A stretch of DNA of 64,000 nt from Escherichia coli (GTDB lineage Bacteria > Pseudomonadota > Gammaproteobacteria > Enterobacterales > Enterobacteriaceae), in NCBI GenBank assembly GCA_031701365.1, contig GCA_031701365.1_4118.1; one strand, 5' to 3'. Position numbers and translations under genes: made by a program. This document shows, piece after piece, positions 3,711-62,542 of this stretch (position 1 is the first letter of the stretch; each line of letters starts with the position of its first letter). The notes under the pieces are model-generated. The model worked only from the letters and a program-made list of their open reading frames with translations, did no database searches and was not told where the DNA came from.

Positions 3711-3734
3711 TAACTATATCAGGAGGGCATACAT

Positions 3735-4588: not shown

Positions 4589-4794
4589 AAACTATAACAC
4601 GAACCCAATCATTCGGACTTATCTTGAAATACATGGACTTAATGGTGGATATCAGCAAAGACCTGCCTAAAACTGCAATTGAAGTTGCAAGAGCAGAGAT
4701 CCGCATGTTGGCTGTACTGAACACAAACCATCAGGAAGAGTATGTTGACGATTGGATTCGATTTTTAATAGAAGATATTAAGAGTAAACTATGA
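4585..4794 (+). CDS. family-A small protein, function unknown
   Basis: ATGA overlap; motif LAVLNTNHQEEYV; C-terminus KSKL. Confidence 0.8.
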   Translation: MKTITRTQSFGLILKYMDLMVDISKDLPKTAIEVARAEIRMLAVLNTNHQEEYVDDWIRFLIEDIKSKL

Positions 4795-5003
4795 TTATAT
4801 TAACACCTGAAGAATATAAGAAACGTTTTAAATCTGTCCAGGCTGAAATATTACTTATATACCTTTCAAATGCAGATCTTAACTTATCAAGGGTAATGGA
4901 GAAGGATTTACTTATGGGTGCATTTTTGGATACAGACTTTCAGGAGTATTATGTAGGAGAATACTTTATTGCACTTCAGAACCACATTAAGAGTAAACTA
5001 TGA
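4791..5003 (+). CDS. family-A small protein, function unknown
   Basis: ATGA overlap; motif GAFLDTDFQEYYV; C-terminus KSKL. Confidence 0.8.
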   Translation: MIILTPEEYKKRFKSVQAEILLIYLSNADLNLSRVMEKDLLMGAFLDTDFQEYYVGEYFIALQNHIKSKL

Positions 5004-5215
5004 TTATTCTAGAAAAATCATATCAATATACTGAACGCATCGCTGCCAGACAACTTGAAATCCTCATAATATACGAAGAGACTTCTGATTTAAACTTAGC
5101 CGAGGTATTGGAAAATGAAATACTTTTGGGTGCATTCTTGGGAACAGACTATCAGGAGTATTATGAGGAAAAGTATTTGTCATCTCTTGAGAAATACGTC
5201 AGGAGCAAACTATGA
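5000..5215 (+). CDS. family-A small protein, function unknown
   Basis: ATGA overlap; motif GAFLGTDYQEYYE. Confidence 0.8.
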   Translation: MIILEKSYQYTERIAARQLEILIIYEETSDLNLAEVLENEILLGAFLGTDYQEYYEEKYLSSLEKYVRSKL

Positions 5216-5439
5216 AACATTTAAGTAATATAGAGAAGAATAAAATTATCATTGCTGTAATAAACAAATATTTTACACTTCCACAAAAAGAATGTTTATC
5301 TATAAGGGAACACAGGATAAACACCACCGAGATTCGCATGTTGGCTGTACTGGGGACTAACTTCCAAGAAGGCTATGTTCATGAGCACATCGTTGCACTC
5401 ACTAATTACATAATGGACAAATGTAATGAACATCATTAA
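5212..5439 (+). CDS. family-A small protein, function unknown
   Basis: ATGA overlap; motif LAVLGTNFQEGYV. Confidence 0.8.
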   Translation: MKHLSNIEKNKIIIAVINKYFTLPQKECLSIREHRINTTEIRMLAVLGTNFQEGYVHEHIVALTNYIMDKCNEHH

Positions 5440-5650
5440 TAACTTTGAATACGAGGCCCGTGCTAAGAGTGCCAGAAAAAAAGAGAACACCATTTACTTC
5501 ACTATGATGTACTTACAATGGACTGAGATTGAAGAAAAGGTTGCTGAAGTATGGATGTTGGAATTCATGGGGACGCAGTATCAGAATAGGTTTGCGGGTG
5601 AGTATATCAATGTTCTTATGAAACAAATAGAAAGAAAGGAAAAGAACTAA
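5426..5650 (+). CDS. family-A small protein, function unknown
   Basis: Motif LEFMGTQYQNRFA. Confidence 0.8.
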   Translation: MNIINNFEYEARAKSARKKENTIYFTMMYLQWTEIEEKVAEVWMLEFMGTQYQNRFAGEYINVLMKQIERKEKN

Positions 5651-5808
5651 TGGTTTTCATTAACATATCTGACCAACTCGATACTAAACTAAAAGTCGAG
5701 AAGAGTGAGGGATGGATGCTGTACTTTCTTGGAACTTCTCATCAGAATTTTTATATCCATGAACACATAGTTGCACTCACAAATCTAATAAGGGATAAAT
5801 GCAAATGA
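5650..5808 (+). CDS. family-A small protein (52 aa, below ORF-track cutoff)
   Basis: Read by hand: TAATG overlap at 5650, MVFINISDQLDTKLKVEKSEGWMLYFLGTSHQNFYIHEHIVALTNLIRDKCK, stop TGA 5806-5808. Confidence 0.7.
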   Translation: MVFINISDQLDTKLKVEKSEGWMLYFLGTSHQNFYIHEHIVALTNLIRDKCK

Positions 5809-6062
5809 AACACTTAACACAAGATGAATATTCACTTAGAATTCGAAAGCTCACCCCAGAAGCAAGAGTAATCTACGATGACGATGCACTTTCATGGAAC
5901 GAGATGAAAGTTAAAGTTCATGAGCTATGGTTGCTGTACTTTGTGGGAACCCAATATCAAGAGAAATATTGTACCGATTATCTTGAACAACTAATGGATC
6001 TTATACAGATAAAACTAAATGAACGAATTGTGGAAAAATATGAAAACTTTATCAAGCACTGA
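5805..6062 (+). CDS. family-A small protein, function unknown
   Basis: ATGA overlap at 5805 (track start 5799 also possible); motif LYFVGTQYQEKYC. C-terminus extended past the usual IKL end by a 1-nt difference at ~6015. Confidence 0.75.
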   Translation: MKHLTQDEYSLRIRKLTPEARVIYDDDALSWNEMKVKVHELWLLYFVGTQYQEKYCTDYLEQLMDLIQIKLNERIVEKYENFIKH

Positions 6063-6291
6063 GTATCAAACTGCCCTCTTCTCCCTTCTAAACACTCTCC
6101 GCACGAACAATAAACTTTATAATTCCCGTGAAGCTGATATTGTCAACGGTGAACTTTATCTTATGAAATTCATTGGAACAAACTATCAAGATCTGTTCAT
6201 TCAACGATACCTGGCAGCATTGAGAAACGAAATATCAGATAAAACCCGCCAAGCCAGAAGAGAATGGAAGAAACAATGCGACAAAGACTAA
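6040..6291 (+). CDS. family-A small protein, function unknown
   Basis: Family-typical N-terminus MKTLSSTEY at 6040 (track start 6019 possible); motif MKFIGTNYQDLFI. Confidence 0.7.
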   Translation: MKTLSSTEYQTALFSLLNTLRTNNKLYNSREADIVNGELYLMKFIGTNYQDLFIQRYLAALRNEISDKTRQARREWKKQCDKD

Positions 6292-6527
6292 ATCACAAAA
6301 TGTATTGTAAACTATTACAGAATCTGGGACAAAAACACTATGATACAGTATCTGAAATATTACCCTATGATATCATGCGTTTAATTCATAGTGAGGCAGA
6401 GATGCTTGTACTGATGACAGGCACTGATAAAACAGCAATTACCAAATCTATAGATATGTTCATCGATGCACACTGCCAACACATTAGAACCGAGATATGG
6501 AGACGTGAGAATGAAAATCCTGACTGA
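6264..6527 (+). CDS. family-A small protein, divergent copy
   Basis: Motif position reads LVLMTGTDKTAIT; alternative start 6276 (MRQRL). Confidence 0.65.
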   Translation: MEETMRQRLNHKMYCKLLQNLGQKHYDTVSEILPYDIMRLIHSEAEMLVLMTGTDKTAITKSIDMFIDAHCQHIRTEIWRRENENPD

Positions 6528-6726
6528 GCATGAGTATTACAATAGGTTAAGAACGATACAAGGAAAAGTCTCGTGGACTTTTTTAGATAATTCTATTGCA
6601 GAAGCGGACCGATGTGTTATAATAGCTGAAATGAAGCTATTACTCTTCATTGGGACAAACTATCAAAGTATCTACATAGACGCATGGTTAAGCAGCTTAC
6701 GTCTGAAGTCGGTGAGTTTAAAATGA
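6511..6726 (+). CDS. family-A small protein, function unknown
   Basis: Track ORF 6466 trimmed to ATG 6511 (MKILTEHEY) after GGAGA SD; motif LLFIGTNYQSIYI. Confidence 0.75.
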   Translation: MKILTEHEYYNRLRTIQGKVSWTFLDNSIAEADRCVIIAEMKLLLFIGTNYQSIYIDAWLSSLRLKSVSLK

Positions 6727-6941
6727 GAAAATTAATAGGTTTCGAATATGTTAAGCTTCTACAAACCTGTGGAATCAGAAGGAGAATGATTCAAAAGGAT
6801 AAAAGAATTGCCGAAGAACGAAAGTATATAATGATAACTGAACTTTATGTCTTAACACTCTTAGGCACAAACTATCAACACACTTATGTAGACCTATGGA
6901 TCGATGCACTACAGAAAGAGGTTAAAAGTAAATGCAAATGA
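6723..6941 (+). CDS. family-A small protein, function unknown
   Basis: Track ORF 6684 trimmed to the ATGA overlap at 6723 (MRKLIGFEY); motif LTLLGTNYQHTYV. Confidence 0.75.
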   Translation: MRKLIGFEYVKLLQTCGIRRRMIQKDKRIAEERKYIMITELYVLTLLGTNYQHTYVDLWIDALQKEVKSKCK

Positions 6942-7150
6942 TTAATTTAAGTAAAGACGAATTTTATGTTATACTGGCGAAAACTTATCCAGCACGTAAG
7001 GCCGTTTATGATAGTCACATTATTGAACCCTCAAAGAAGTTGATTTTAGTAAATGAGATAAAGATGCTTTCAGTCTTAGGAACAAACTATCAAGAGAATG
7101 CGGTACTGATGTTAATTGATGCCCTCCAGCGAGAGGTTAAACGTAAATGA
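6938..7150 (+). CDS. family-A small protein, function unknown
   Basis: ATGA overlap at 6938 (track start 6932 possible); motif LSVLGTNYQENAV. Confidence 0.75.
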   Translation: MINLSKDEFYVILAKTYPARKAVYDSHIIEPSKKLILVNEIKMLSVLGTNYQENAVLMLIDALQREVKRK

Positions 7151-7392
7151 AAATGATTAATTTAACTTACCATGAATATCAAAAACGTTTAAATGCATCC
7201 AGAGATATAAGGATTCAAATATTCAATAACAAAAGATTGAAGCCTGATATCAGGAAAATCAAAATCATAGAAGCCGTGTTGTGCAACTTCCTAGGGACTA
7301 ACTATCAGGAAGGTAAGGTAGAAAACTATCTTATAGAACTCATGAATAGTATTGAAAATAAATGCGAGGATAATGATCATGAAAATGATTAA
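7147..7392 (+). CDS. family-A small protein, function unknown
   Basis: ATGA overlap; motif CNFLGTNYQEGKV. Confidence 0.8.
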   Translation: MKMINLTYHEYQKRLNASRDIRIQIFNNKRLKPDIRKIKIIEAVLCNFLGTNYQEGKVENYLIELMNSIENKCEDNDHEND

Positions 7393-7642
7393 TTTAAGTA
7401 AAGATGAATATACCGAGCGTATGACAAAAAATACTCTTAAACGTAATACAATCTATCACAACCCAGAAATTCAACACAGTAAGAAAATGATTATGATACG
7501 TGAGTTAAAGATGGGTGTATTCTTAGGAACAAACTATCAAGAGATGGAAGTAAATCGCTTAATCGCGGAGTTACTAATGGAAATCAAAGGTAAGCTGTAC
7601 TTTTATCAAATGACCCGTCCACTAAGGTGTACTGATCGATGA
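7379..7642 (+). CDS. family-A small protein with C-terminal extension
   Basis: Start ATGAAAATGATTAATTTAA at 7379 repeats the start of the 7147 gene (track start 7352); motif GVFLGTNYQEMEV. Confidence 0.7.
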   Translation: MKMINLSKDEYTERMTKNTLKRNTIYHNPEIQHSKKMIMIRELKMGVFLGTNYQEMEVNRLIAELLMEIKGKLYFYQMTRPLRCTDR

Positions 7643-7881
7643 ATATTGTGAATAACATCAGATTAGCAGAAAGATTTGATAGAATTGGGGAAGCACTGAG
7701 AAGATACGATAAAGAATATGGTCATTTGAGCTTTTCTATAGAAAAGAGATATGAACTTGAAGCAGAGTTTAAAATGCAGAGTCTCTTAGGCACACAGTAT
7801 CAAAACCAATATATTCAAACTTGGATTGATTGTTTAATCCAGACAATTTACGTAAGGAACATTAAATGCAAAATGAAATGA
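7639..7881 (+). CDS. family-A small protein, function unknown
   Basis: ATGA overlap; motif QSLLGTQYQNQYI. Confidence 0.8.
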   Translation: MNIVNNIRLAERFDRIGEALRRYDKEYGHLSFSIEKRYELEAEFKMQSLLGTQYQNQYIQTWIDCLIQTIYVRNIKCKMK

Positions 7882-8111
7882 TATACTTAACATATAATGA
7901 ATACGTCGAGAGATTAGTTAGTGCCAAGAGATATACAAATCAACTTCCTCACAACCCAAACCAAACCCCAGAGGAAAAGAATGCGGAAGCTCTATTCCAA
8001 GCACTACCATACCTTCTTGGAACTGATAGGCAGGAGTATCACGTTGAACGTATAATTAAATCTCTTAAAATCACTATTAAGGAAAAGATACATGAAGCAC
8101 TTGACAGATGA
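7878..8111 (+). CDS. family-A small protein, function unknown
   Basis: ATGA overlap at 7878 (track start 7866 possible); motif PYLLGTDRQEYHV. Confidence 0.75.
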   Translation: MIYLTYNEYVERLVSAKRYTNQLPHNPNQTPEEKNAEALFQALPYLLGTDRQEYHVERIIKSLKITIKEKIHEALDR

Positions 8112-11741: not shown

Positions 11742-12287
11742 ATGAATGAGATAGAATTATTAGCACACAAGATTAGTACAATAATGCTTATCCTAAATAA
11801 CAACCATCCTATATCGCAGATAGATGGAATCCTGAGTCAGAGGACAGGTGGTAGTTTATATTTGACATTAACAGAGGTTATCGCAAGGAATTACATTGAT
11901 ATTGAAATCGAGAACAGTGATGCATCAGGAAAGGTTGATGTAGGTGCATTAATCAGTTCAAATCCAGTATCAGCATCCCCATTGACCAAAGGTGTTAGTA
12001 CAGGATTCGAAGGGTATTTGTGGTACAATACCAATGATGATTATTTTATATATCAGCATTCCAATACAAATTATGATGAAGACAAATTTCAGTTCATAGA
12101 CCCTTATGATGAAGCTGAAGTATTTCAAAAATCATTAATCACAAAACCGCATGAGATGATGTATCTAATGTTATTCAGTACAATGCATTTGAATCCATTA
12201 ATTAAAGGTTTAAAATTTTATATTCAATTGAAATTAGTCCATGTAGTTTATGATTTATTAATGCAAGGATATAGTTATGAAGTATAA
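11742..12287 (+). CDS. family-B protein (long form)
   Basis: Motif DEAEVFQKSLITK; 181 aa. Confidence 0.8.
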   Translation: MNEIELLAHKISTIMLILNNNHPISQIDGILSQRTGGSLYLTLTEVIARNYIDIEIENSDASGKVDVGALISSNPVSASPLTKGVSTGFEGYLWYNTNDDYFIYQHSNTNYDEDKFQFIDPYDEAEVFQKSLITKPHEMMYLMLFSTMHLNPLIKGLKFYIQLKLVHVVYDLLMQGYSYEV

Positions 12288-12588
12288 AATGATGTATACC
12301 CCAGATATGATTTATGTTGAATTAGAAGATGATGACGATGGGTGGAATTTGATTTATTCAAGAAGTTCAGGTTGGTACATGGCACATTTAAATGATTCGA
12401 TAGTTACAGATTATTTTGTAGATTTCAATACATTATCCGATGAAGAATTGTTCCAACAGCAATTAGTAATTGACACGGGTGGTTATGATGTTTTATTATT
12501 AAAAAAGATACAGAAAGCTGTTATTGATTTTAAGCCCAAGATGTTGCAAAGGAAATATTATGACCTCGAAGTACCGTACCAGCAATGA
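12277..12588 (+). CDS. family-B protein (short form)
   Basis: AAGGA SD; motif SDEELFQQQLVID. Confidence 0.8.
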   Translation: MKYKMMYTPDMIYVELEDDDDGWNLIYSRSSGWYMAHLNDSIVTDYFVDFNTLSDEELFQQQLVIDTGGYDVLLLKKIQKAVIDFKPKMLQRKYYDLEVPYQQ

Positions 12589-13126
12589 AATTCAGTACAC
12601 CTACGCTAATGCAATCATTATGGGACAAAAGTTAGCTTGTATTGTTGCAGCCTTATATAATGCCCAGAAATATCACAAGCGTCATTTCCACAAATGTATT
12701 GGTATTATTCCATCGAAGTACAATACATATATTGCGTGCACGAGTCATTTTGATAAACGATTCAATACACCTGATACCCCAAATGCCAGTAGTGTTATTG
12801 GTCTTTTGGATTTCGCACCTGGTGCTGTTATTGGAAAGAATGATTTAGAGTACGCATGGTATAATAAAAATGCACCGTTAGTAATGGTAAAATATGATAC
12901 AGAAACGAACAAAACAATAGAGTACAATACATATAAATCAGAGGAAGAATTTTTCCAAGGTTCATTGCTTGTGCCAGTGCGTTTGTTGTTTTATAATGTC
13001 CTTATTAGTACAGTACACAATAGTCCATTACACAAGAATCACAAAATTAATTTCAATTTTTGTGCTTATGCGATTGATGGTGTGTATGAGTGTTTAATGG
13101 AGGTATTGAGTTATGAAGCTGAATAA
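12560..13126 (+). CDS. family-B protein (long form)
   Basis: Track ORF 12524 trimmed to ATG 12560 after AAGGA SD; motif SEEEFFQGSLLVP. Confidence 0.75.
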   Translation: MTSKYRTSNEIQYTYANAIIMGQKLACIVAALYNAQKYHKRHFHKCIGIIPSKYNTYIACTSHFDKRFNTPDTPNASSVIGLLDFAPGAVIGKNDLEYAWYNKNAPLVMVKYDTETNKTIEYNTYKSEEEFFQGSLLVPVRLLFYNVLISTVHNSPLHKNHKINFNFCAYAIDGVYECLMEVLSYEAE

Positions 13127-13454
13127 TACATTTGATATTAATAAGTTAAGAGAATGGTTTTATAGTATTGAAATTGAAGCCATCCCGTATCATAGATATG
13201 AACAATATAATTTAACCAGTATTGATATCAGTGAGTTGTACGCGTATTATCAAAGTGCATTAGAGATGCATAAGTTATTTTTGAGTACAGATTTTGTTCT
13301 AAATTACAATTTTGAGGAATTTAATAATTATAATTTAGTACAGAAATATGTAGTAGCAAAGTATATGTACCTTCAAGGAATTACAAGTAATTTGGAATTC
13401 AATACAGTCCTTGCTTTAGTTGAGGTAATTTTATGCAGTACATGTATGATTTAG
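13113..13454 (+). CDS. hypothetical protein (113 aa)
   Basis: GGAGG SD; no family motif. Confidence 0.65.
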   Translation: MKLNNTFDINKLREWFYSIEIEAIPYHRYEQYNLTSIDISELYAYYQSALEMHKLFLSTDFVLNYNFEEFNNYNLVQKYVVAKYMYLQGITSNLEFNTVLALVEVILCSTCMI

Positions 13455-13939
13455 AGTTTAGTTTAGATGCTGCCTTTAAATTTGTTCACAAGATAGAAAC
13501 AATATACAGTACATTATGTGCAATAAAATCAGTAACAGAAGAGCTTGATGTTGGTGAAAAATATCAGGTATGGAATAATACATTTCTAAACAAAGAACGT
13601 TGCTCTACGGGGTTTAATATTTTAACATTTAATCCCAGCAATTGTTACCCAGAGAAGCATGAACGTTATCCGAATGACGACATGTGGTTTGATTACACAA
13701 AAGATGGTGATATGTCATCCCTTGTAGTTCCTGATGATTTTAATGCCGAAGATTTAACGGAAGAGTGGTGGTTTCAACAGAATTTAGTACACGATGATAT
13801 TGATTTATTTTTTTATGTAGTATTTAAAATGCTTTACCACAACAATATATTAAAAGATAGTGTGTTTTTTTCATGTCTATATATTGATGATTTGTACAAT
13901 GAAATCCAAATCAACATACCCAGAACGCCTGTATCGTAA
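13433..13939 (+). CDS. family-B protein (long form)
   Basis: Motif TEEWWFQQNLVHD. Confidence 0.8.
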   Translation: MQYMYDLEFSLDAAFKFVHKIETIYSTLCAIKSVTEELDVGEKYQVWNNTFLNKERCSTGFNILTFNPSNCYPEKHERYPNDDMWFDYTKDGDMSSLVVPDDFNAEDLTEEWWFQQNLVHDDIDLFFYVVFKMLYHNNILKDSVFFSCLYIDDLYNEIQINIPRTPVS

Positions 13940-13964
13940 GATATGGGCTTTTTTCGTTTTGGTA

Positions 13965-13993
13965 TTGACAAAGAAGTGCAAAGCTGTTATCAT
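13965..13993 (+). promoter_or_regulatory. sigma70-type promoter inside the B array
   Basis: -35 TTGACA 13965-13970, 17-nt spacer, -10 TATCAT 13988-13993; preceded by a T-rich tract. Confidence 0.55.
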
Positions 13994-14021
13994 GTGTAAT
14001 CATTTTAAAGGAGAACATATA

Positions 14022-14534
14022 GTGAGTTTCATAATCCCAAGTACATACGAAGATGCATCAAGTGCAGTTCATAAGATTCATTATATTTTTAATTTAATTA
14101 TTAGATCTGCAAAAATTAAAATGTATGCACCTCTTGTGACAAATAATCGAAATGAAGAAATTTTTATTAGCACAGACAAAATTATTTTTCCATATTTCAA
14201 TGAAGATAGATTGTGGTTCATACATTTAGCTGCATTACAAAAATATAAGATGTCAATTCGTAATAATTTGGATATACCGTTATATCATCCTGATATTGGA
14301 GAGGATGAATATTTTCAGTACAGTACAGTACACCGCCATGAAGATATCTTTGTTGCTATGCTTATTGCTAAATTGAATACCGTTGATTTGGAGCAGTACA
14401 AATACAATAATAAATCATGTAAGATCATAATCCCTGCATTCATAGCTCTTTATGATTATGTGGTGCATAACAAAAAAGATGATACATATGCTTTCAATGA
14501 AGAGTATTTGAATTTTTTTAAGGAGAACATATGA
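14022..14534 (+). CDS. family-B protein (long form)
   Basis: Track ORF 13860 runs through the promoter; trimmed to GTG 14022, 8 nt after AAAGGAG SD; motif GEDEYFQYSTVHR. Confidence 0.7.
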   Translation: MSFIIPSTYEDASSAVHKIHYIFNLIIRSAKIKMYAPLVTNNRNEEIFISTDKIIFPYFNEDRLWFIHLAALQKYKMSIRNNLDIPLYHPDIGEDEYFQYSTVHRHEDIFVAMLIAKLNTVDLEQYKYNNKSCKIIIPAFIALYDYVVHNKKDDTYAFNEEYLNFFKENI

Positions 14535-15058
14535 GCAGTGAAGTGCTGAAATCAATGACATTCAATGAAATTGGTACATTTAAAGATAAGATCATTGATT
14601 GCATTGAATACATGATTTGTAGTAATATCGAAAGTATCGAGATATTTAACAAGACAAATCGCTCTTACCATATGATGTACATTGCAAACAATAATGGTAT
14701 CATTCCATTTATTTCGGATAGTACAATATGGTACGCATGTGATACGAAAAAAACCACAATAGGTTTACATTCATTTGAGACACATTATGATCTAATTATT
14801 CCTGAACATTGTATGCAAGAAGAAGAATATTTTCAAATGCAATGTATACATTCACCATTAGTGTTGTTTAGTTTATATATTATACCTTATATCACCAAAT
14901 GTGTTCATGAGAATAAAGCTCCGTGGAATCATGAATTTGTATCGTTGAAGTTATTGTATAATGTATTAGTAGAATATTATGATTACAGGCACAATGGTAC
15001 AATCAGTGATGTATGGGATTTTGAATCGCTAAGGGTGAAAACATACACAGGTGAATGA
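14531..15058 (+). CDS. family-B protein (long form)
   Basis: ATGA overlap; motif QEEEYFQMQCIHS. Confidence 0.8.
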   Translation: MSSEVLKSMTFNEIGTFKDKIIDCIEYMICSNIESIEIFNKTNRSYHMMYIANNNGIIPFISDSTIWYACDTKKTTIGLHSFETHYDLIIPEHCMQEEEYFQMQCIHSPLVLFSLYIIPYITKCVHENKAPWNHEFVSLKLLYNVLVEYYDYRHNGTISDVWDFESLRVKTYTGE

Positions 15059-15059
15059 T

Positions 15060-15674
15060 ATGACCAGAATTAAAATGTATGATTTGATGCAGTACAGTAA
15101 AATTGCCATTCCAGTGCTTAATAAAGTGCTGGATGCATTCATTGCCAAATACCCTGAGAATTCAGTGTTATGTATTCCATTTAGTGTTCCAGATAAAGAT
15201 GATATATTCCAAGTGAATGTCAGTACACGTGGTATTACATTGCAGCAGAAATACATGGATACGGAATATTATGGAATAAAGTTGGATTCAGTACAGGGTT
15301 CAAAATCAGCCTATGATTTTTTTGTTCCTAATAACATCGAGTCATGGGAAACAAACATTTCAAAGAAAGATGAAAATGATGTTCCTATTAGTGGTGTGTT
15401 CAACAATAAAGTTTTTTATTATTACGAAACCGACAAATTCCCTGAAGAGTTATATTACAATTCAGAAATGAATGAAGATGTAGATGCATTCATGTTTCAA
15501 TTATCTTTAGTACATGATATCATTGATGTTCAAGAGTTAAGAGCAGAAATCAATTTAGCTAAAGAGTTATCGGACATGCTGCCACCGTTTAGTATGCTTT
15601 TTTGTGAAGGAGGTTATTTTTCAAAAGAAGTGTTTGAACATTTCGTAGATGTTGTAAAAGGGTTGGATATATAG
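15060..15674 (+). CDS. family-B protein (long form)
   Basis: First in-frame ATG at 15060 (track GTG 15051); motif DVDAFMFQLSLVHD. Confidence 0.75.
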   Translation: MTRIKMYDLMQYSKIAIPVLNKVLDAFIAKYPENSVLCIPFSVPDKDDIFQVNVSTRGITLQQKYMDTEYYGIKLDSVQGSKSAYDFFVPNNIESWETNISKKDENDVPISGVFNNKVFYYYETDKFPEELYYNSEMNEDVDAFMFQLSLVHDIIDVQELRAEINLAKELSDMLPPFSMLFCEGGYFSKEVFEHFVDVVKGLDI

Positions 15675-15675
15675 T

Positions 15676-15870
15676 ATGCTTATAATTGATATTAAACAAA
15701 AATACCGTAAGTTTGATTGGTTCACCGATAGTTTCCAGCTTGAATTATTACATATGAATATCAGTGAAACATTATGTGCAGAAACACAAGATGAATTTGA
15801 TGATAGAGTGATGAACATAGTAATGCTTTCTTGCTTTAAACATTTTGGTTATTTTTTCGGGCAGAATTGA
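15676..15870 (+). CDS. family-B remnant (64 aa, lacks the N-terminal two-thirds)
   Basis: Motif-like TDSFQLELLH sits near the N-terminus, so this looks like a truncated copy. Confidence 0.5.
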   Translation: MLIIDIKQKYRKFDWFTDSFQLELLHMNISETLCAETQDEFDDRVMNIVMLSCFKHFGYFFGQN

Positions 15871-15877
15871 GGTAAAA

Positions 15878-16393
15878 ATGCATCAACACAAGCATCATTC
15901 ATATGATTTTGCAATTAACATTATGAAGTTTATTCGAGCGTTGGAGGATGGGAAGCTTAGTCATAAGTACAGGAAAGAGGGTAACAATTGGTTCAGAAAT
16001 GATTCCGAGTTCAGTTGTCATAAAATCGTGTATAGTAATCAGTACAGTGCCAATTACCTACAAGATGTAGTGATGTGTTTTGAATACGTGTTGCAGTTCA
16101 GGGGTTCAATCCAAGATGAGTTGATGGAGAACATGTACATCCGATACCTTCCAATGCTCAAAGATGAAAATGTATTATTAAATTCAATATATCAACGAGT
16201 TCGTGAAATAGAGTGCAGGGATATATTAGATACAGAAGAATCGTATTTCCAGCAATCCCTGATTTATTCACCTGATTTATTACAGGTACATAATTTGTTT
16301 AATACATTACGTCAGAACATCAGTACAGACATATTTTTGTCATTATCGGATTATGATACATTTGTCAAAGATTTAGAGGAAATAGGTTTATGA
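15878..16393 (+). CDS. family-B protein (long form)
   Basis: Track ORF 15845 trimmed to ATG 15878 after GAGGT SD; motif TEESYFQQSLIYS. Confidence 0.75.
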   Translation: MHQHKHHSYDFAINIMKFIRALEDGKLSHKYRKEGNNWFRNDSEFSCHKIVYSNQYSANYLQDVVMCFEYVLQFRGSIQDELMENMYIRYLPMLKDENVLLNSIYQRVREIECRDILDTEESYFQQSLIYSPDLLQVHNLFNTLRQNISTDIFLSLSDYDTFVKDLEEIGL

Positions 16394-26195: not shown

Positions 26196-26221
26196 CACCC
26201 TCCGATTCTTTGTGATATAAT
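26192..26221 (+). promoter_or_regulatory. TRTG-extended -10 promoter
   Basis: -35 TTGACA 26192-26197, 18-nt spacer ending TGTGA, -10 TATAAT 26216-26221. Confidence 0.65.
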
Positions 26222-26254
26222 CTCTTTATATTAATTGTAAAGGGTTATATCACA

Positions 26255-33334: not shown

Positions 33335-33339
33335 ATTCG

Positions 33340-33366
33340 TACCAGGGGTTGACTCTGGTATTTTTG
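33340..33366 (+). terminator. weak terminator hairpin overlapping a promoter
   Basis: Stem TACCAG/CTGGTA, 9-nt loop containing TTGACT, then TTTTTG. Confidence 0.45.
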
Positions 33367-33377
33367 TATGATACATT
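33349..33377 (+). promoter_or_regulatory. extended -10 promoter
   Basis: -35 TTGACT 33349-33354, 17-nt spacer ending TGa, -10 TACATT 33372-33377. Confidence 0.45.
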
Positions 33378-37437: not shown

Positions 37438-37911
37438 ATGGAGATTAAAACTGTTGAAAATGGGAAAATTGATGACATTTTAGAGTTGGACGCATTCAAA
37501 GTTCATGATATAATGTTTAATGTGAAGGACATTATTCAATGTCTATTTTTGTGTAGCAAGACAATGCATGATTTTTTTCACAACCCAAATACTAACGTTT
37601 TTATACTAACAATCAGTACTGAAAACTCGTTTATCATGGGTATGCCTATGAGTACAAATGAACAATATATTGATTGTGTTATTCGTAATAACGATAGTAT
37701 TACGCCACAATCTGAAGTACGTAAAAAGAAAAACACCTACACAATCAAAGATGATAAAATTATGATGTGCTGTAGTAAAGGGTTTATATTAGATAATTTT
37801 ATCGTCAAAGACAGTTATCACGACTTTAAAGTGTCTGAAAATCAATCCAATGTAGTTCTTTATGCGAGTGACATAGAAAGTCTAACAGTTAAAGATCCCA
37901 GTTTGGAGTAA
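37438..37911 (+). CDS. hypothetical protein (157 aa)
   Basis: AAGGA SD; no family motif. Confidence 0.7.
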   Translation: MEIKTVENGKIDDILELDAFKVHDIMFNVKDIIQCLFLCSKTMHDFFHNPNTNVFILTISTENSFIMGMPMSTNEQYIDCVIRNNDSITPQSEVRKKKNTYTIKDDKIMMCCSKGFILDNFIVKDSYHDFKVSENQSNVVLYASDIESLTVKDPSLE

Positions 37912-38939: not shown

Positions 38940-39233
38940 ATGGATACTAAATTCAAAATTATTTTTAAAACTAAGCCGTATATTCCACATACAGCAGAAC
39001 GTTTTATACCACATGGTGCTGAGGAAATTATTCACCAAGATGGTACTAAGTTATACCTTGTTCCTTGTTCTTATGAACGTGCAGTAGAAATGTTACTAAT
39101 GAATGCTAGACTATGCAAAAACAAGTACATTAGTTACCTATACAATGAACATATTTTAGATTTCAATGATGAAAATATGTTCATTCTAGCAATTGAGGAT
39201 TTTGATAACTGGTACAATATTATTAAAATCTAA
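38940..39233 (+). CDS. hypothetical protein (97 aa)
   Basis: GGAGG SD. Confidence 0.7.
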   Translation: MDTKFKIIFKTKPYIPHTAERFIPHGAEEIIHQDGTKLYLVPCSYERAVEMLLMNARLCKNKYISYLYNEHILDFNDENMFILAIEDFDNWYNIIKI

Positions 39234-39242
39234 TGAAAATAA

Positions 39243-39290
39243 TGTGAACATATTAGATTCTTGTGATATAATGTTCACATCTTTTTTTGA
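39243..39290 (+). terminator. terminator hairpin with a promoter embedded in its loop
   Basis: Arms TGTGAACAT 39243-39251 and ATGTTCACA 39271-39279, then TCTTTTTTT. Confidence 0.65.
39244..39272 (+). promoter_or_regulatory. TRTG-extended -10 promoter inside the terminator hairpin
   Basis: -35-like GTGAAC 39244-39249, 17-nt spacer ending TGTGA, -10 TATAAT 39267-39272. The predicted start site falls at the end of the 3' arm. Confidence 0.55.
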
Positions 39291-39304
39291 TAACGGAGAT
39301 ATAG

Positions 39305-39691
39305 ATGAATACAAGTTCAGTCCTAAAAGCAATTGGTGGTGTTTTACTCATTGAAGTAAAAGGTGAGCCAAAGCTATGCTGTTTAGAAGATATGAAGAAT
39401 ACAAAACACTTCAGTACTGGTCAGATTTTCAATGCCATTCGTATTCTAAATGACAAATCCATTGCTGATTATGGAAAAGTTTGGCCTGTATATCAAAATG
39501 CTGATGGTGATATCAGTACTGATTGGAAAACAATTGAGGCGGTACGACAAAGTTGTGAGAGTGATTGGGACTTCATTGTTGAAGTTTGTGATCAACTACA
39601 AGAAGATGTTCCAGAAATTGTTGAACGAAAAGAAGTTCTAGCACGACTTGAAAAATTCCGTCACGGAACACTACAGTATGACACAATCTAA
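39305..39691 (+). CDS. hypothetical protein (128 aa)
   Basis: ACGGAGA SD; first gene after the 39244 promoter. Confidence 0.7.
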   Translation: MNTSSVLKAIGGVLLIEVKGEPKLCCLEDMKNTKHFSTGQIFNAIRILNDKSIADYGKVWPVYQNADGDISTDWKTIEAVRQSCESDWDFIVEVCDQLQEDVPEIVERKEVLARLEKFRHGTLQYDTI

Positions 39692-39740
39692 TCTGCTTAT
39701 TAAAAATATCTAATTAACATTATATAAAAGGAATTTAAAA

Positions 39741-40046
39741 ATGGAAGACAATGGAATGAAATTTGATATGTTTGAAGGTGTACCAGAGTTCGATTTCAAC
39801 AAACTTGAAGAAGGTGAGGAATCAGAACTAGTTAGTGTTACACTTAAAGCAGATTCTAAAAAGAAATATTCATCATCAGTACGTTCACGTTCACAAGAAG
39901 AATACGAAACATTTATTGAAAGTATTCATTATGAAACATTCCATCACGCAGATGGAACTCCATATGAAGTACGTGTAACAGTACTGAAGCCTGAAGTAAA
40001 TCCAATGGAAAATCTACGTCCTGTTTACTGCTGGGCAAGTCACTAA
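39741..40046 (+). CDS. hypothetical acidic protein (101 aa)
   Basis: AAGGA SD; strong terminator follows. Confidence 0.7.
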   Translation: MEDNGMKFDMFEGVPEFDFNKLEEGEESELVSVTLKADSKKKYSSSVRSRSQEEYETFIESIHYETFHHADGTPYEVRVTVLKPEVNPMENLRPVYCWASH

Positions 40047-40052
40047 TAAACC

Positions 40053-40086
40053 AAAGGACGGGATTTGTTATCTCGTCCTTTTTTTG
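40053..40086 (+). terminator. rho-independent terminator
   Basis: 11-bp stem AAAGGACGGGA/TCTCGTCCTTT (one G.U), loop TTTGTTA, T-run. Confidence 0.8.
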
Positions 40087-40097
40087 TCTGGAGATGT

Positions 40098-40952
40098 ATG
40101 AAACTTTATCTAATCGTTGACTACAATAAGGATTATGCTGGTAACTTCACCGAAGATTCGGATGGATATTGCACATCGACTAATGTCAATGTACGTAGCA
40201 GTAGTGCTCATGAACATGAATCTTGTAAAAATCTAAAAGATTTTATCGCATACCGAGCATTTGAAAAGAACTTCTGCCGCAGTAGATATTCGAAGTTTGA
40301 GTACCCGTTAATTGATGTTCCTGATGATTTAATGTTCCAGTTAATGCTGACTGGAGTTCAAGATTATGATTACATAGCGTATAATCATATTACTAAGAAA
40401 ATTTATATTGGTACATCATCACATGACACTTCTATGTATGCATCATGCCCAGATGATCGAATGAATGATAGAAAATCATACTATAGTGGGTCAGTTGGTT
40501 TAAATGATTCATTAAATAAAAATTCATTCTTTGAGTATGTTTATGATTACCATCATGAGAAAAAAGAACGTGAAGATTACTGTATAGCAATTGATAGTAC
40601 TAATGGTTATGAAGACGTGAAAGAAGCACTTATGCCGTACATTATTGAAAAGTACTACAAAGATTTTCAGTACTGTAGTAATTTTCTAATCAGAAATTCT
40701 ATTATAATCGGTCGCCAATCTAGTGCATACTCTCAGTACTACAACGATTCACCAGTAGCATCGGCAAATGAAATGTGTGATATTTTACAAATTCCACGTG
40801 AAGATATGACATTTATTTTTACGTCTTTTATTGAAGATGATGAGTTGTATATTAAAAATAAACACCGTTTCATGCCAAGCAAGATTGAGGTTATTCGAAG
40901 TTTTAGTGTTGATATACTAACAAATTTCACAGAAAAAACCGAATATAACTGA
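40098..40952 (+). CDS. family-B-related protein (284 aa)
   Basis: Track TTG 40065 lies inside the terminator; trimmed to ATG 40098 after GGAG; motif PDDLMFQLMLTGV. Confidence 0.7.
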   Translation: MKLYLIVDYNKDYAGNFTEDSDGYCTSTNVNVRSSSAHEHESCKNLKDFIAYRAFEKNFCRSRYSKFEYPLIDVPDDLMFQLMLTGVQDYDYIAYNHITKKIYIGTSSHDTSMYASCPDDRMNDRKSYYSGSVGLNDSLNKNSFFEYVYDYHHEKKEREDYCIAIDSTNGYEDVKEALMPYIIEKYYKDFQYCSNFLIRNSIIIGRQSSAYSQYYNDSPVASANEMCDILQIPREDMTFIFTSFIEDDELYIKNKHRFMPSKIEVIRSFSVDILTNFTEKTEYN

Positions 40953-40969
40953 GACAAATGATAAGTTAA

Positions 40970-40978
40970 TGATATAAT
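40970..40978 (+). promoter_or_regulatory. extended -10 element TGATATAAT
   Basis: TGa+TATAAT at 40970-40978. The predicted start site (~40985) falls inside the 5' arm of the following terminator hairpin. It would drive the ORF-free region downstream. Confidence 0.45.
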
Positions 40979-40980
40979 AT

Positions 40981-41014
40981 AAGGTGACAACATAATATGT
41001 TAGTCACCTTTTTT
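40981..41014 (+). terminator. rho-independent terminator
   Basis: AAGGTGAC-AACAT-AAT-ATGTT-A-GTCACCTT, then TTTT. Confidence 0.7.
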
Positions 41015-41540
41015 AATCCTGAAAGGTTCCCATAAGGAAATGATTAAAAGCCTAATCCACTCGAAAATGTAGAGGGTAGATGAGTAGTCCTTTCAGTACG
41101 AACAGCAGATGAAACCCGTTAGATGATGGCATAGTTTGAACCACTCACGGCAATGCGGCTGTATAAAGAACTCCAATAGGATAAAGAGAGTTCCTCGATA
41201 GACATATAAGGATCGCACCTTACCAATTATCTAAGGGAGATTTCATAAGAAATATGCGGTCGGAATTATACAATATAGTTGCGTCCAAATTTTGTGAAAT
41301 CAAATACAAGTACTGGTCATATGGTATTTGTATTATGTGTCGGGATGTTTAAGACCGACGACCGTTGCTACAAGAACCGCGATAGAGAGAAACAGAGCAA
41401 CCCGCTTTCGTCTCGTAAGAGAATTCGTGATATGAACTATGTGAAGGCCACCAGCGTCAAATTTTTTTGTTCTTTCCCCTGCGGGGGGATGAAATATGCT
41501 CAAGCAAACCCCGTCAATATTAATTAAAAGAAAATAGTAC
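41015..41540 (+). ncRNA. candidate structured non-coding RNA region (family unknown)
   Basis: ~0.5 kb with no credible ORF and higher GC than its flanks. Many local helices: CTGAAAGG/CCTTTCAG, GAACTC/GAGTTC, GTCGG/CCGAC, GTTGCT/AGCAAC, TCTC-GTAA-GAGA (GNRA loop), CCCC-TGC-GGGG. Confidence 0.3.
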
Positions 41541-41632
41541 TTGTAGAATTAAACATGCGTAGCATGATAATTCTACTGATGTTGATGCAATCAACGTCAC
41601 GTATATTCATTGATGTTTCCATAGGAATAATG

Positions 41633-42175
41633 ATGGCATTTATTAGAAAAGAAAAAACTGTTACTTATAAAACTTTGAATTTTGATGATTGCATTAATCA
41701 ATCACAAGACGAAGATATCTTTACTGGATATGTGGTTATTAAAGAAAAAGGATGCATTTCTTATATAAAGGAATTACAAAATGGAATTGAAGTGACTTCA
41801 GTTAAATTACTTCCTACTCAAAAACCAACAATATCAAAAGCCCAGTATGGTAATTATTTTGAAGAAAGATATAGTAATAATTCAATAAGTGTTAAGGCTC
41901 ATATTATTAAAGGAGAACTAGAAGGAGAATATAGAAAATACAACCCACAAGGAAAATGTGTTTGGGTTAAATACTTCAATTCAGGATATGATGTAACATC
42001 TGAAATTATAGAATTCTTGGGTTTAAAATGTACCCCTGAGACTATTCATGATTACAAGTTCAATACTGAAGAAGAGTTTAATCTGATGATGCGTTACGGT
42101 TCACATTTTAAATTTTTATATGAATATAACATTGACAGTAGTACTTTTGATAAGATAGTACACAACTGTCTCTAA
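41633..42175 (+). CDS. hypothetical protein with MORN/YwqK-like repeat (about 180 aa)
   Basis: Track ORF 41555 trimmed to ATG 41633 (or 41630) after AGGAA; GELEGEYRKYNPQGKCVWVKYFNSG repeat pattern. Confidence 0.55.
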   Translation: MAFIRKEKTVTYKTLNFDDCINQSQDEDIFTGYVVIKEKGCISYIKELQNGIEVTSVKLLPTQKPTISKAQYGNYFEERYSNNSISVKAHIIKGELEGEYRKYNPQGKCVWVKYFNSGYDVTSEIIEFLGLKCTPETIHDYKFNTEEEFNLMMRYGSHFKFLYEYNIDSSTFDKIVHNCL

Positions 42176-44419: not shown

Positions 44420-44449
44420 ATAGCCCGACATAAGTTCGGGCTATTTTTG
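44420..44449 (+). terminator. rho-independent terminator
   Basis: Perfect 9-bp stem ATAGCCCGA/TCGGGCTAT, loop CATAAGT, then TTTTG. Confidence 0.8.
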
Positions 44450-47059: not shown

Positions 47060-47068
47060 TGATATAAT
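47060..47068 (+). promoter_or_regulatory. extended -10 element TGATATAAT
   Basis: TGa+TATAAT at 47060-47068 in the 58-bp gap before the 47109 gene; weak -35. Confidence 0.45.
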
Positions 47069-50013: not shown

Positions 50014-51152
50014 CCCTTTTACAAATATATGAAGATTTAATGCACTTATGTAATACAAACGATGCATTCTTTTATGTGGATCATAAAAGTCCTGCTGGTG
50101 GCACGTATCGTGTATTCAGTTATCGCCTAGCATCATACACTGATTTCATGCAACCAAATGCGTTGGAAACCCGTGGCTCTATGTGGGAAATTGATGAAGA
50201 AGGTGACATGATACGTTGTGCAGCACGTACAATGAAAAAGTTCTTCAATGCTTACGAGAATCCTGCTACAATGTTCCCTGCTAACACCACATGCGATGAC
50301 ATTGCGGTCGTGATGCCTAAGTTGGATGGTTCGATTATCAGTACTTATCGTGATAATGATGGTGAGATTCGTTGTAAATCACATACTGCATTGTATTCTG
50401 ACCATGCGATTAACAGTACTCGACTTATTAACGAGAACCAGAATTTGTATCAGTACATCGACGAAGCGGAACGTTTAGGTTACACAGTTAATATGGAGTA
50501 TACAAGCCCAGAGTACCGAATTGTATTACCATATCAGGTAGAACAACTGTTTGTACTGAACGTTCGACATCGTGTGAGTGGTGAGTTGCTATGTGGTAAA
50601 GCACTACGTGATAAGTTTCCATGTCTTGCACAGTACAGTACTAATATGACCGGAAAAGATATTCATCACACTTTTCCGGTACGAAATACCTTCCGTGAAA
50701 GCGTGGAGGAAGTTCATAAAATGCTTGATATTGAGGGTTTTGTGTGCATCCTAAATAATGGGACAATGTGTAAAATAAAAACTGACTGGTACAGTTCATT
50801 ACATCTTACAAAAGATAGTATTATTATTGATTCTCATTTATATGAAGCCGTATTAAATGGTTCAAGTGATGATTTAAAACAATTGTTCAGTACTGATGAA
50901 TATGCTATGCAAAAGATATTAAGAATGGAACATTTGGTATTTTCGTGCTATAATGCATTACAAGATGAAGTAGAAAGCTTCGTCAAGGAACACAAGCACT
51001 TGGAGCGAAAGGAATTCGCAATGAAGGTTCAGGAGTGTTTAACTAATGAACTGAATCGTCAGGGCTTGGCCTTTGCAATGTATAACAATAAGAAAGTTGA
51101 TTACAAAGAGACTCTTATAAAATACATGAAAATTGTACTAAAGGATTTTTAG
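50010..51152 (+). CDS. rnlA: RNA ligase 1 (T4 RnlA-like)
   Basis: 380 aa. The N-terminus parallels T4 Rnl1 (GGTYRVFSY...ALETRG...KFFN). Adenylylation motif I is PKLDGS; EGFV and KIKTDWY motifs follow. Confidence 0.9.
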   Translation: MTLLQIYEDLMHLCNTNDAFFYVDHKSPAGGTYRVFSYRLASYTDFMQPNALETRGSMWEIDEEGDMIRCAARTMKKFFNAYENPATMFPANTTCDDIAVVMPKLDGSIISTYRDNDGEIRCKSHTALYSDHAINSTRLINENQNLYQYIDEAERLGYTVNMEYTSPEYRIVLPYQVEQLFVLNVRHRVSGELLCGKALRDKFPCLAQYSTNMTGKDIHHTFPVRNTFRESVEEVHKMLDIEGFVCILNNGTMCKIKTDWYSSLHLTKDSIIIDSHLYEAVLNGSSDDLKQLFSTDEYAMQKILRMEHLVFSCYNALQDEVESFVKEHKHLERKEFAMKVQECLTNELNRQGLAFAMYNNKKVDYKETLIKYMKIVLKDF

Positions 51153-54827: not shown

Positions 54828-54853
54828 GGTGATATAATTTGATTACATCACCA
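54828..54853 (+). promoter_or_regulatory. extended -10 element (GGTGATATAAT) inside a small hairpin
   Basis: TGa+TATAAT at 54830-54838; arms GGTGAT/ATCACC flank it. Confidence 0.45.
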
Positions 54854-56350: not shown

Positions 56351-56601
56351 TGTTCAACAACGACTTATCACATTTGCGATATCTTATGTCTTTGGCTGAT
56401 GATTTTATAAATGATCTGAAGCCAAAATATATTGGTCAAGAAGTACGATTAATAAACTCCAGAGGGTATGGAAAATATATTATTACTGATATGTATATTA
56501 GTGGTGGTGAATGGCGTTTTAAAATTAATACTTATCTTAAAGATGGTTCTTTTGCTGGAACACAAGTTACTAAACACACTAATATTATATGGTTGGAGTA
56601 A
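56350..56601 (+). CDS. family-C small protein
   Basis: TAATG overlap; KPKYIGQEVRLI. Confidence 0.75.
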   Translation: MFNNDLSHLRYLMSLADDFINDLKPKYIGQEVRLINSRGYGKYIITDMYISGGEWRFKINTYLKDGSFAGTQVTKHTNIIWLE

Positions 56602-56603
56602 TA

Positions 56604-57347
56604 ATGAAACATTTCTTAGAAGTAACCGTACCTGATGATAAAGATTTATACATTGTAGGTGATTTGCATGGTAATGGTAAACTATGGGATGCTACAGTGA
56701 AAGAATTTGGTATTACACACAATGATTATGTTTTCAGTGTAGGTGATATTATCGACCGTGGAGAACAAAATTCAAAGCTCCTTTTTGAATTTTTGTTCGG
56801 AGAAAATCGTTACATGATTGCGGGTAATCATGAGATGATGTGCGTTGATTCGGAAACACTTCGAGATTGGTATCATTGTTGGATAAGTAATGGTGGTGAT
56901 AAATTCCTTGATGAAGTTGGAGGAACAGGCATTCAATTCTTTCGTCAGTACTTAAAAGATCTCCCTATGATTATCCAAATCAATCACCGAGGCTTGAAGA
57001 TTGGGTTAGTTCATGCTGGAGTTCCGTTGGAATATACAACATGGGAACGATTTGTTAATGGGACAAAATCACTTAGTGCTGATATAATTGATAAGTGCTT
57101 GTGGGATAGGAAAACATTCGATTATTGTAGAACGAATAATACCTATTATGCACCTAAGTTAGATGGAGTGCATTGTGTCTTTAGTGGACATACAGCAGTT
57201 ACTGATCCACTCATTTATGGTAATCGCATTTGGATTGATAGTCAATTCTTGACGGGTGACTTAACTCTCGCTACTCCACAAAGTGGTGGGATGAGATACT
57301 TACGTAAAGAAAAAGATGAGTACTCATTCAATCGTTTCAAAAGGTAA
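56604..57347 (+). CDS. Ser/Thr protein phosphatase (lambda PPase / PrpA-like metallophosphatase)
   Basis: Track ORF 56589 trimmed to ATG 56604 after GGAG; GDLHGN, GDIIDRG, GNHE, and HAG/GHT motifs in canonical order. Confidence 0.85.
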   Translation: MKHFLEVTVPDDKDLYIVGDLHGNGKLWDATVKEFGITHNDYVFSVGDIIDRGEQNSKLLFEFLFGENRYMIAGNHEMMCVDSETLRDWYHCWISNGGDKFLDEVGGTGIQFFRQYLKDLPMIIQINHRGLKIGLVHAGVPLEYTTWERFVNGTKSLSADIIDKCLWDRKTFDYCRTNNTYYAPKLDGVHCVFSGHTAVTDPLIYGNRIWIDSQFLTGDLTLATPQSGGMRYLRKEKDEYSFNRFKR

Positions 57348-62513: not shown

Positions 62514-62542
62514 TTGGACATTTTAAATCTTAGTGATATAAT
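62514..62542 (+). promoter_or_regulatory. extended -10 promoter upstream of clpP
   Basis: -35 TTGGAC 62514-62519, 17-nt spacer ending AGTGA, -10 TATAAT 62537-62542. Confidence 0.6.

Follow-up and report, generated by a model that had tools for sequence, protein, structure and literature searches.

Introduction

How can one transcription unit end and the next begin when the terminator of the first and the promoter of the second occupy the same few dozen nucleotides? This question is raised by two gene junctions, designated here site 1 (39242-39288) and site 2 (40950-41014), in a stretch of DNA of 64,000 nucleotides (nt) from an Escherichia coli jumbo phage, referred to as the window. The initial annotation of the window, made from the letters alone, had proposed that at both sites a promoter with an extended -10 element is interwoven with an intrinsic terminator, and that transcripts arriving from upstream fold the complete hairpin and stop, while transcripts initiated at the embedded promoter lack its 5' arm and escape. 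Terminator-promoter overlaps in bacterial chromosomes and promoter-proximal terminators in phages are known already, and the junctions represent a condensed form of an arrangement familiar from bacteria.

This paper describes the two junctions, the promoter class on which they are built, and their conservation among related phages. We consider it probable that they are compact terminator/promoter junctions in a one-directional gene block of an Asteriusvirus coliphage, and that their promoters belong to a class, spread across the phage family, consisting of a TGrrAC box, 14 nt and TGnTATAAT. The larger point, which lies outside what the initial annotation had claimed, is the RNA that the site-2 promoter appears to drive. 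We incline to the view that site 2 is the control region of an undescribed family of folded phage RNAs of ~0.5 kilobases (kb), specific to RaK2-like phages, with three to four ancient paralogues per genome that have their own promoters, are often shielded by a terminator, and head transcription units. New large structured RNAs are rare, and they have repeatedly led to new biochemistry.

Origin of the window

A 4-kb stretch around the junctions displayed 98.9% identity to the Escherichia phages vB_EcoM_G17, Sharanji, phAPEC6 and 121Q; by this similarity the window is that of an Asteriusvirus (121Q/G17/phAPEC6-like) jumbo coliphage with E. coli as its host. Genomes of this genus measure ~350-370 kb, and its more distant relatives infect Salmonella, Klebsiella, Erwinia, Yersinia, Serratia, Cronobacter, Pectobacterium and Xanthomonas. 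The suggestion of a Gram-positive host, which had been drawn from a TRTG-type -16 element as a sign of sigma-A promoters, had to be abandoned because the best matches are E. coli phages and the relatives point to a Gram-negative, enterobacterial host; moreover, TRTG occurs at only ~4 of the 10 sites of the class described below. Promoters with a TGn extended -10 are commonplace in E. coli. The junctions lie in an extended run of co-directional, mostly small genes without assigned function, and JNE01, the most diverged member of Asteriusvirus, was used for conservation checks.

A strand-specific promoter class

The extended -10 sequence TGATATAAT has 10 exact matches in the window, all on the + strand, where 3.85 are expected for both strands together, and none of 100 shuffled sequences reached this number. 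Sequence outside + strand open reading frames (ORFs) makes up 6.7% of the window and contains six of the ten matches. Each of the ten has TGn directly 5' of a TATAAT-like hexamer, the arrangement of sigma-70-type extended -10 elements, and the orientation shared with the genes, the placement 5' of genes and the conservation are those of promoters. Seven sites have a -35-like box (TGAGAC, TGGGAC, AGGGAC, TTGGAC or GTGAAC) before the TG, at a spacing of 14 nt (37506, 39264, 40970, 47060, 54830 and 62534) or 15 nt (57080); site 26213 has a canonical TTGACA with an 18-nt spacer in place of the class box, and sites 42946 and 44903 lie inside ORFs, at least the former without a convincing box. The six promoter coordinates given initially were accurate to 1-2 nt, and four further copies (37506, 42946, 44903 and 57080) are added here. 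The proposal of a second promoter class in the window is thereby borne out, the class being real, strand-specific, enriched between genes and conserved.

Orthologous class sites are retained in JNE01. At 47060 and 62534 the similarity between the two phages starts exactly at TGATATAAT, and a new box, CTGAAC or CTAGAC, is again found 14 nt 5' of it. Motifs of the class that lie with their boxes inside ORFs (37506-37514, 50946-50954 and 57080-57088) are kept as well, even where the flanks are ~70% identical, and are possible internal promoters. We infer promoter activity from these features, and the class may be recognized by E. coli RNA polymerase carrying the host sigma-70 or a phage RpoD-like sigma factor; the latter is encoded by phages of this group (PMC11895373), and no phage sigma gene is encoded within the window.

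The architecture of the class is that of the 29-nt 'Promoter 1' predicted for Pectobacterium phage CBB, which is published as TGAAAC(G)-N14-TGnTATAAT at 18 sites (Buttimer et al. 2017, PMC5259590) and was also noted for GAP32 (Abbasifar et al. 2014, as cited in PMC5259590). The layout of a 6-nt box, 14 nt and TGnTATAAT is identical, and at the orthologous locus the promoters of CBB, Kaldavass and GAP32 match that of site 2 base for base in alignment; the Yen9-04 promoter aligns with it too. The Asteriusvirus class differs in its box, which is TGAGAC, TGGGAC or TTGGAC (also TGrGAC and GTGAAC) rather than TGAAAC, and in a -10 that is nearly always TGATATAAT. The class is therefore real, yet already predicted for relatives. 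The published CBB promoter lists are predictions made with MEME on 100 nt upstream of genes (PMC5259590), and because of this input they miss promoters that stand in front of an RNA.

Coordinates of the class members, of both junctions and of the elements discussed below are collected in Table 1. As a separate observation on member 26213, a 10-base-pair (bp) inverted repeat at 26211-26254 (TGTGATATAA-N24-TTATATCACA) pairs its extended -10 with the bases just 5' of the ATG of the next gene.

Table 1. Positions of the promoter, terminator and RNA elements in the window
Feature	Position	Strand	Description
Class member	26213-26221	+	Intergenic; TTGACA, 18-nt spacer
Third overlapping module	33339-33377	+	Hairpin 33339-33361 followed by T5; -35 TTGACT 33349-33354; -10-like TGATACATT 33369-33377
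Class member	37506-37514	+	Inside ORF 37438-37911; TTGGAC-N14-TGATATAAT; motif kept in JNE01
Site 1, 5' arm ATGTGAACAT	39242-39251	+	Holds -35-like GTGAAC at 39244-39249
Site 1, extended -10 TGATATAAT	39264-39272	+	TATAAT 39267-39272, in apical part of hairpin
Site 1, 3' arm ATGTTCACAT	39271-39280	+	Followed by C and T7 at 39282-39288
Site 2, -35-like box TGAGAC	40950-40955	+	Overlaps TGA stop of ORF 40100-40952; aligns with TGAAAC of CBB, Kaldavass and Yen9-04
Site 2, extended -10 TGATATAAT	40970-40978	+	TATAAT 40973-40978
Site 2, predicted intrinsic terminator	40981-41014	+	Stem 40981-40993 / 40997-41010; T6 ending at 41014
Structured non-coding RNA, copy A, ~510 nt	41015-41523	+	Conservation, covariation, no conserved ORF, no Rfam match
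Helices of copy A	41019-41026 / 41089-41096; 41201-41203 to 41513-41515; 41469-41479 / 41484-41494	+	First helix; long-range pairing; 3' hairpin
Class member	47060-47068	+	Intergenic; AGGGAC-N14-TGATATAAT
Class member	54830-54838	+	Intergenic; TGAGAC-N14-TGATATAAT
Class member	57080-57088	+	Inside ORF 56589-57347; TGGGAC-N15-TGATATAAT; kept in JNE01, flanks only 70% identical
Class member	62534-62542	+	Intergenic, upstream of ClpP-like gene; TTGGAC-N14-TGATATAAT

Architecture of the two junctions

At site 1 a perfect 10-bp inverted repeat (ATGTGAACAT/ATGTTCACAT), with a 19-nt spacer that can add 5 pairs, encloses the promoter: the 5' arm contains the -35-like box, and the final two bases of TATAAT open the 3' arm. 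The RNA fold has a free energy (dG) of -12.1 and a z-score of -2.66, and 3 of 200 shuffles were equally stable. The -10 had been placed in the loop of a 9-bp hairpin followed by T8; the interweaving holds, and the stem is 10 bp long and is followed by C and T7. The predicted start is the A at 39279, 7 nt after the -10 and with C at -1, close to where the stem ends. In this reading the entire promoter of gene 39305-39691 is enclosed by the terminator of gene 38940-39233. RNA started upstream would fold the hairpin and stop at T7, and RNA started at the promoter would be without the hairpin because its start lies near the stem end, if both elements are active.

The extended -10 of site 1 is invariant in 5 Asteriusvirus genomes, and the arms and T tract are kept in the four other than the one studied here (JNE01, WPEC5, slurp01 and UE-S1). 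Two positions vary, each by an A-to-G change, one in either arm (JNE01, WPEC5), and both changes keep a G.U pair in the + strand RNA; with only these two G.U-compatible changes available, the compensatory test is weak at this site. The corresponding gene junction in RaK2 and Munch has almost no spacer, so the module is genus-specific. A 14-bp perfect inverted repeat (AATGAACATATTTT-N14-AAAATATGTTCATT) was also observed at 39144-39185, inside ORF 38940-39233 and 100 nt 5' of site 1, with which it has the half-site TGAACAT in common; in JNE01 one of its positions shows a compensatory change and one a change that breaks pairing.

At site 2 the extended -10 lies just upstream of the terminator, as had been annotated, with a stem of 13 bp and one bulge that begins two bases after the -10. 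Its fold (dG -13.9, z -5.87) was not equalled by any of 200 shuffles. ARNOLD calls this hairpin a terminator in G17, and its orthologues are annotated as terminators in CBB (Torf70) and in Munch. The order of promoter, hairpin and T4-T8 is kept in 21 distinct orthologous sequences from several genera, while the sequence of the stem turns over: its variants (AAGGTGAC.., AAGGTGATA, AGGGGTAAAGG, AGGACGGTAC, AGGACGATGC, AGGACAGCAC and AGACAGC) remain paired through compensatory changes. Such changes establish the terminator pairing at site 2, and the stable stem-loop with a T tract that characterizes intrinsic terminators is present at site 2, at the third module (33339) and at site 1.

Transcription from the site-2 promoter is predicted to start at 40985-40986, inside the 5' arm. 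Starts at 40985, 40986 and 40987 would reduce the hairpin from dG -13.9 to -5.4, -5.0 and -0.7, respectively, and shift the base of the stem 3-4 nt off the U tract. Intrinsic termination requires a stem adjacent to the U tract, and on this requirement termination at site 2 should drop strongly once the stem is displaced. The promoter opens on the stop codon of gene 40100-40952, the predicted terminator of that same gene lies 2 nt past the -10, and RNA started at the promoter would keep a weak, displaced stem and largely read through. Its promoter would be dedicated to the RNA of ~510 nt that follows (41015-41523) and to the ~3 kb of genes behind it. Since the next + strand terminator is at 44421-44448, the site-2 promoter heads a unit of ~3.4 kb, which supports the proposal that one transcription unit ends and the next starts within a compact segment.

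A structured RNA downstream of site 2

Site 2 is followed by an unannotated gap of ~620 nt (41015-41633). Its core, 41015-41523 (copy A), has counterparts of 66-76% DNA identity in distant genera, where they are mostly unannotated and occur in several copies per genome. A profile search and two pattern scans together yielded 43 distinct copies with upstream sequence, and a box-N14-TGnTATAAT promoter lies directly 5' of 42 of these. Hairpin-free copies have a stretch of ~9-10 nt, or 18 nt in a single 121Q copy, separating the -10 from AATTCTG, the conserved 5' end, and in copy A the first helix starts 5 nt past the T tract. The site-2 promoter therefore appears, from this association, to be the dedicated promoter of a structured RNA.

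In an alignment of 20 copies, the consensus fold comprises 23 helices with 106 pairs. Paired cells made up 93.6% in this fold versus 33-45% when the partners were slid, 45 pairs had changed on both sides versus 14-20 with slid partners, and the covariation score was 0.353 versus 0.06-0.12; the observed values were attained by none of 500 shuffles. The invariant blocks of the RNA are better conserved than the neighbouring proteins, and the proteins encoded downstream of copy A are 35-75% identical among phages. A protein-coding gene in the gap was rejected, as every forward frame of every copy contains 5-19 stops and no ORF is positionally conserved. A leader belonging to one gene family was rejected too, given that the genes after the A and B copies are unrelated and that one 121Q copy has no ORF within 400 nt.

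Comparison of the whole window with Rfam 15 at the gathering threshold gave no match, and neither the locus at E up to 10 nor five other copies at E up to 0.5 gave a meaningful one. ARAGORN reported no tRNA or tmRNA match for the RNA, and there are no tRNA genes nearby. Resemblances to the P/Q/R/S elements of group I introns and to conserved regions of RNase P were noticed by hand; they have no model match and are not claimed. Homology to ncRNA001, 002 and 004, detected by RNA-seq in the distant relative PA5oct, was dismissed for lack of an nhmmer match.

The RNA was detected in RaK2-like jumbo phages alone. The genomes of 185,579 bacterial and archaeal species representatives do not contain it; of the 21 metagenomic loci that matched the pattern, nearly all were verified with the RNA profile, and several are on contigs of 355-371 kb, as in these jumbo phages. 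By motif there are four copies in Yen9-04 and three each in CBB, GAP32 and 121Q; the window contains no second copy. No terminator directly follows the RNA, and the unit that extends to 44421 includes a Dam methylase gene and a cytidylyltransferase-like gene. Nothing describing this RNA turned up in the searchable literature. Its possible roles include those of a free-standing ribozyme or scaffold, or of a cis element that modifies the transcribing polymerase; in the latter case the RNA might, as a speculation by analogy, be a much larger counterpart of the HK022 put RNA.

Its size of ~0.5 kb, its covarying helices, its long invariant unpaired stretches and its occurrence in phages recall the ornate RNAs GOLLD, ROOL, OLE and raiA (bioRxiv 10.1101/2024.12.08.627333). 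It differs from these in having no Rfam family and no nearby tRNA genes, in its restriction to RaK2-like phages of Gram-negative hosts, and in the three to four paralogues per genome, each of which has a promoter to itself and, in most cases, same-strand genes behind it.

Conservation of the layout and limits of the escape mechanism

Escape through a missing 5' arm fits the geometry of site 1 and is plausible for site 2 of this phage in view of the loss in dG, whereas it does not hold generally among the orthologues. Counted from the -10, the first paired base lies at +4/+5 in Asteriusvirus and the Munch-type lineage, at +6 in the CBB/Kaldavass/GAP32 type, at +7 in Yen9-04, at +8 in two uncultured lineages and at +11 in one further lineage. 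With offsets ranging from +4 to +11, a missing arm cannot be the general rule. In RaK2, the orthologous RNA locus (L105, 4120-4200) has a homologous terminator (AGGACGG..CCGTCCT followed by T6) upstream of the promoter, so the order of terminator and promoter has been swapped in evolution. Among the RNA copies, 21 have the promoter followed by the terminator and 7 have a terminator just before the -35, besides the upstream terminator of RaK2. The comparison suggests that the conserved feature is a terminator within ~40 nt of a class promoter, not a start inside the arm, and that insulation seems to have been selected.

The layout recurs elsewhere. Between orf261 and orf262 of CBB (L132, 187,470-187,555), TGAAAC-N14-TGATATAAT is followed by 3 nt, a 10-bp stem that starts 4 nt after the -10, T7, a ribosome binding site and the start of orf262. 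This second promoter-then-terminator junction shows the layout to be recurrent, and orf262 can be expressed from there only by passing the terminator. Both elements are listed separately in the CBB supplement, and the searched passages of the text carry no remark on their adjacency (PMC5259590).

Several points weigh against the two sites acting as proposed. Starts at the G residues 40983 or 40984 would keep most of the site-2 stem (dG -10.9 and -8.4). A start at +7 would transcribe the whole hairpin in the orthologues L011, L055/L061, Yen9-04 copy A and L131. At site 1 the stem is AT-rich, its apical region is large, and the ARNOLD annotation of G17 does not call it. A promoter and a terminator share one gap in 4 cases against ~2.4 expected, which is near chance, and no 5' or 3' transcript-end data for this phage group were found in the searchable literature. 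Inverted repeats of 10 bp are present at 8 loci (12 counted matches) against a shuffle mean of 3.6 counted matches; with repeat and gap counts this near to chance, the functional case rests on conservation.

Alternative functions

Orthologues in which the predicted start precedes the stem (at +7, +8 or +11), with the full hairpin 3' of it, raise the alternative of a leader attenuator, in which the site-2 hairpin would act mainly on the RNA of its own promoter and yield a ~30-nt RNA and regulated read-through, by which the timing or dosage of the structured RNA and its operon would be set. Precedents exist in Pseudomonas phages including phiKZ, where 42 termination sites in 5' untranslated regions (UTRs) give short and long transcripts (PMC10914365), and in E. 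coli, where the greA leader terminator gives the small RNA GraL (PMC6829880). However, the same promoter stands before the paralogous copies B and C, which have no hairpin, and the D/x-type copies and RaK2 have the terminator 5' of the promoter, which fits a terminator directed against upstream transcription. Moreover, in the window and in the Munch-type lineage the stem begins at +4/+5, so that the start would fall inside it. Attenuation is therefore regarded as a tentative alternative of rather low probability.

Coupling instead of insulation is a further possibility, also held to be doubtful, in which heavy upstream transcription would occlude the downstream embedded promoter. From their study of the tufB-secE region, the authors infer that initiation at the overlapping promoter declines as more polymerases load the terminator (PMC6735719), and since the terminators of sites 1 and 2 surround or follow their promoters, occlusion is unavoidable there. 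By the same geometry, polymerases reading through would cross the promoter before they stop; transcripts would be reset and the promoter would not be shielded, and protection of the promoter by this layout is not supported. The orders of terminator and promoter are, however, interchangeable at one locus across phages, suggesting that the order is not critical. The variety of layouts and the order swap among relatives constitute a natural test set for how near to a start site a terminator can still be bypassed and for distinguishing insulation from coupling of adjacent units.

Unlikely, in our judgement, is a coincidence of packing, in which elements share short gaps and the overlaps merely save space. 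The window has ~33 gaps of at least 40 nt, the four that hold both elements hardly exceed expectation, and 10-bp inverted repeats arise by chance a few times per 64 kb; set against this are the site-2 layout kept in 21 distinct sequences of several genera despite stem turnover, the 33339 layout kept in JNE01 with an unrelated stem, and the second junction of this type in CBB. Least probable of all is that site 1 is a palindromic DNA operator for a dimeric regulator covering the promoter, given that, although the perfect repeat flanks the -35 and the start site and shares TGAACAT with the repeat 100 nt upstream, the A-to-G changes in JNE01 and WPEC5 keep RNA pairing and break the DNA palindrome, which favours an RNA hairpin, a T7 tract lies directly 3', and the half-site was not found at the other class promoters.

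Relation to known systems

Compact junctions of this kind have relatives among described systems. Phage lambda pR'-tR' likewise has a promoter closely followed by a terminator, which Q antitermination overcomes for expression of a long operon; it differs in spacing (~200 nt versus ~30 nt here), and no Q-like element, pause signal or antiterminator protein was identified for the junctions. The tufB-secE overlap of Salmonella, for which promoter occlusion has been inferred (2019, PMC6735719), resembles them in that the downstream promoter and the terminator closing the upstream unit have bases in common and in being long-conserved in the same host lineage. Such sharing is seen at site 1, whose 5' arm contains the -35 and whose 3' arm contains the -10 and the predicted start, at 33339, with the -35 in the loop, and at site 2, with the predicted start in the 5' arm. 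Here, the overlap is in a phage genome and uses a phage-specific promoter class, site 1 has the whole promoter inside the hairpin, and site 2 has the terminator after the promoter; functional coupling has been studied for tufB-secE. Promoter-proximal terminators in 5' UTRs have been mapped by ONT-cappable-seq in virulent Pseudomonas phages (Putzeys et al. 2024, PMC10914365), and like these and greA/GraL (PMC6829880), the junctions place an intrinsic terminator within tens of nt of a promoter at the head of a unit. In those cases the start is clearly upstream of the hairpin, whereas here it is predicted inside the 5' arm, and the hairpin here also closes the upstream gene.

Three layouts occur in this phage group: a terminator loop that contains the -35, a hairpin that encloses the whole promoter, and a terminator that begins 2-10 nt past the -10.

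Other terminator and promoter modules in the window

The loop-embedded -35 annotated at 33339-33377 is indeed present. TTGACT occupies the loop and the 3' arm, the T tract lies in the spacer, and the fold has a dG of -12.9; JNE01 has an unrelated stem in an identical layout. The CBB terminator list includes similar GGGTTGACTTCGGTCAGCCC+T6 forms (PMC5259590). A 'smaller version' of the junctions, which had been proposed near 54828, did not hold up: the 6-bp GGTGAT/ATCACC hairpin at 54828-54852 (dG -8.1, z -1.69) has no T tract and is not terminator-like, and the region was not found in JNE01. Short inverted repeats around the -10 (57080, 62534, 54830) were considered as a general theme and rejected, none having a T tract; the 6-bp repeat flanking 57080 is not conserved in JNE01, and that at 62534 only partly.

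A permissive terminator scan was uninformative (84 matches on the + strand versus 95 on the - strand), and ~11 compact hairpin/T-tract sites were retained. Of these ~11 convincing + strand terminators, 5 have a promoter inside or within 40 nt, about as many as the scarcity of intergenic sequence leads one to expect. Conventional terminator-then-promoter pairs are found at 13927/13965-13993 and 30037/30067-30095, where TTGACA/TTTACA-N17-TATCAT/TATACT promoters with TGT lie 10-11 nt past the T tract; these promoters probably belong to the first promoter class of the initial annotation.

Further features of the window

Positions 1-4200 contain ten ORF-free gaps of 56-255 nt on the + strand, which is unusually dense, and have a G+C content of 0.37-0.41, above that of the rest of the window; this segment has no tRNA or Rfam match. 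Several GC-rich 6-bp palindromes (CCATGG, CAGCTG, AGGCCT, AGCGCT and ACCGGT) do not occur in the window at all. The sequence CAGTACTG occurs 44 times where 0.6 occurrences are expected, in all codon phases and between genes, and is wholly missing from 4001-8000 and 12001-16000. The palindrome AGTACT is present 200 times in the window where 21 occurrences are expected, a 9.3-fold excess; the 6-bp palindrome that ranks second in enrichment reaches 2.8-fold.

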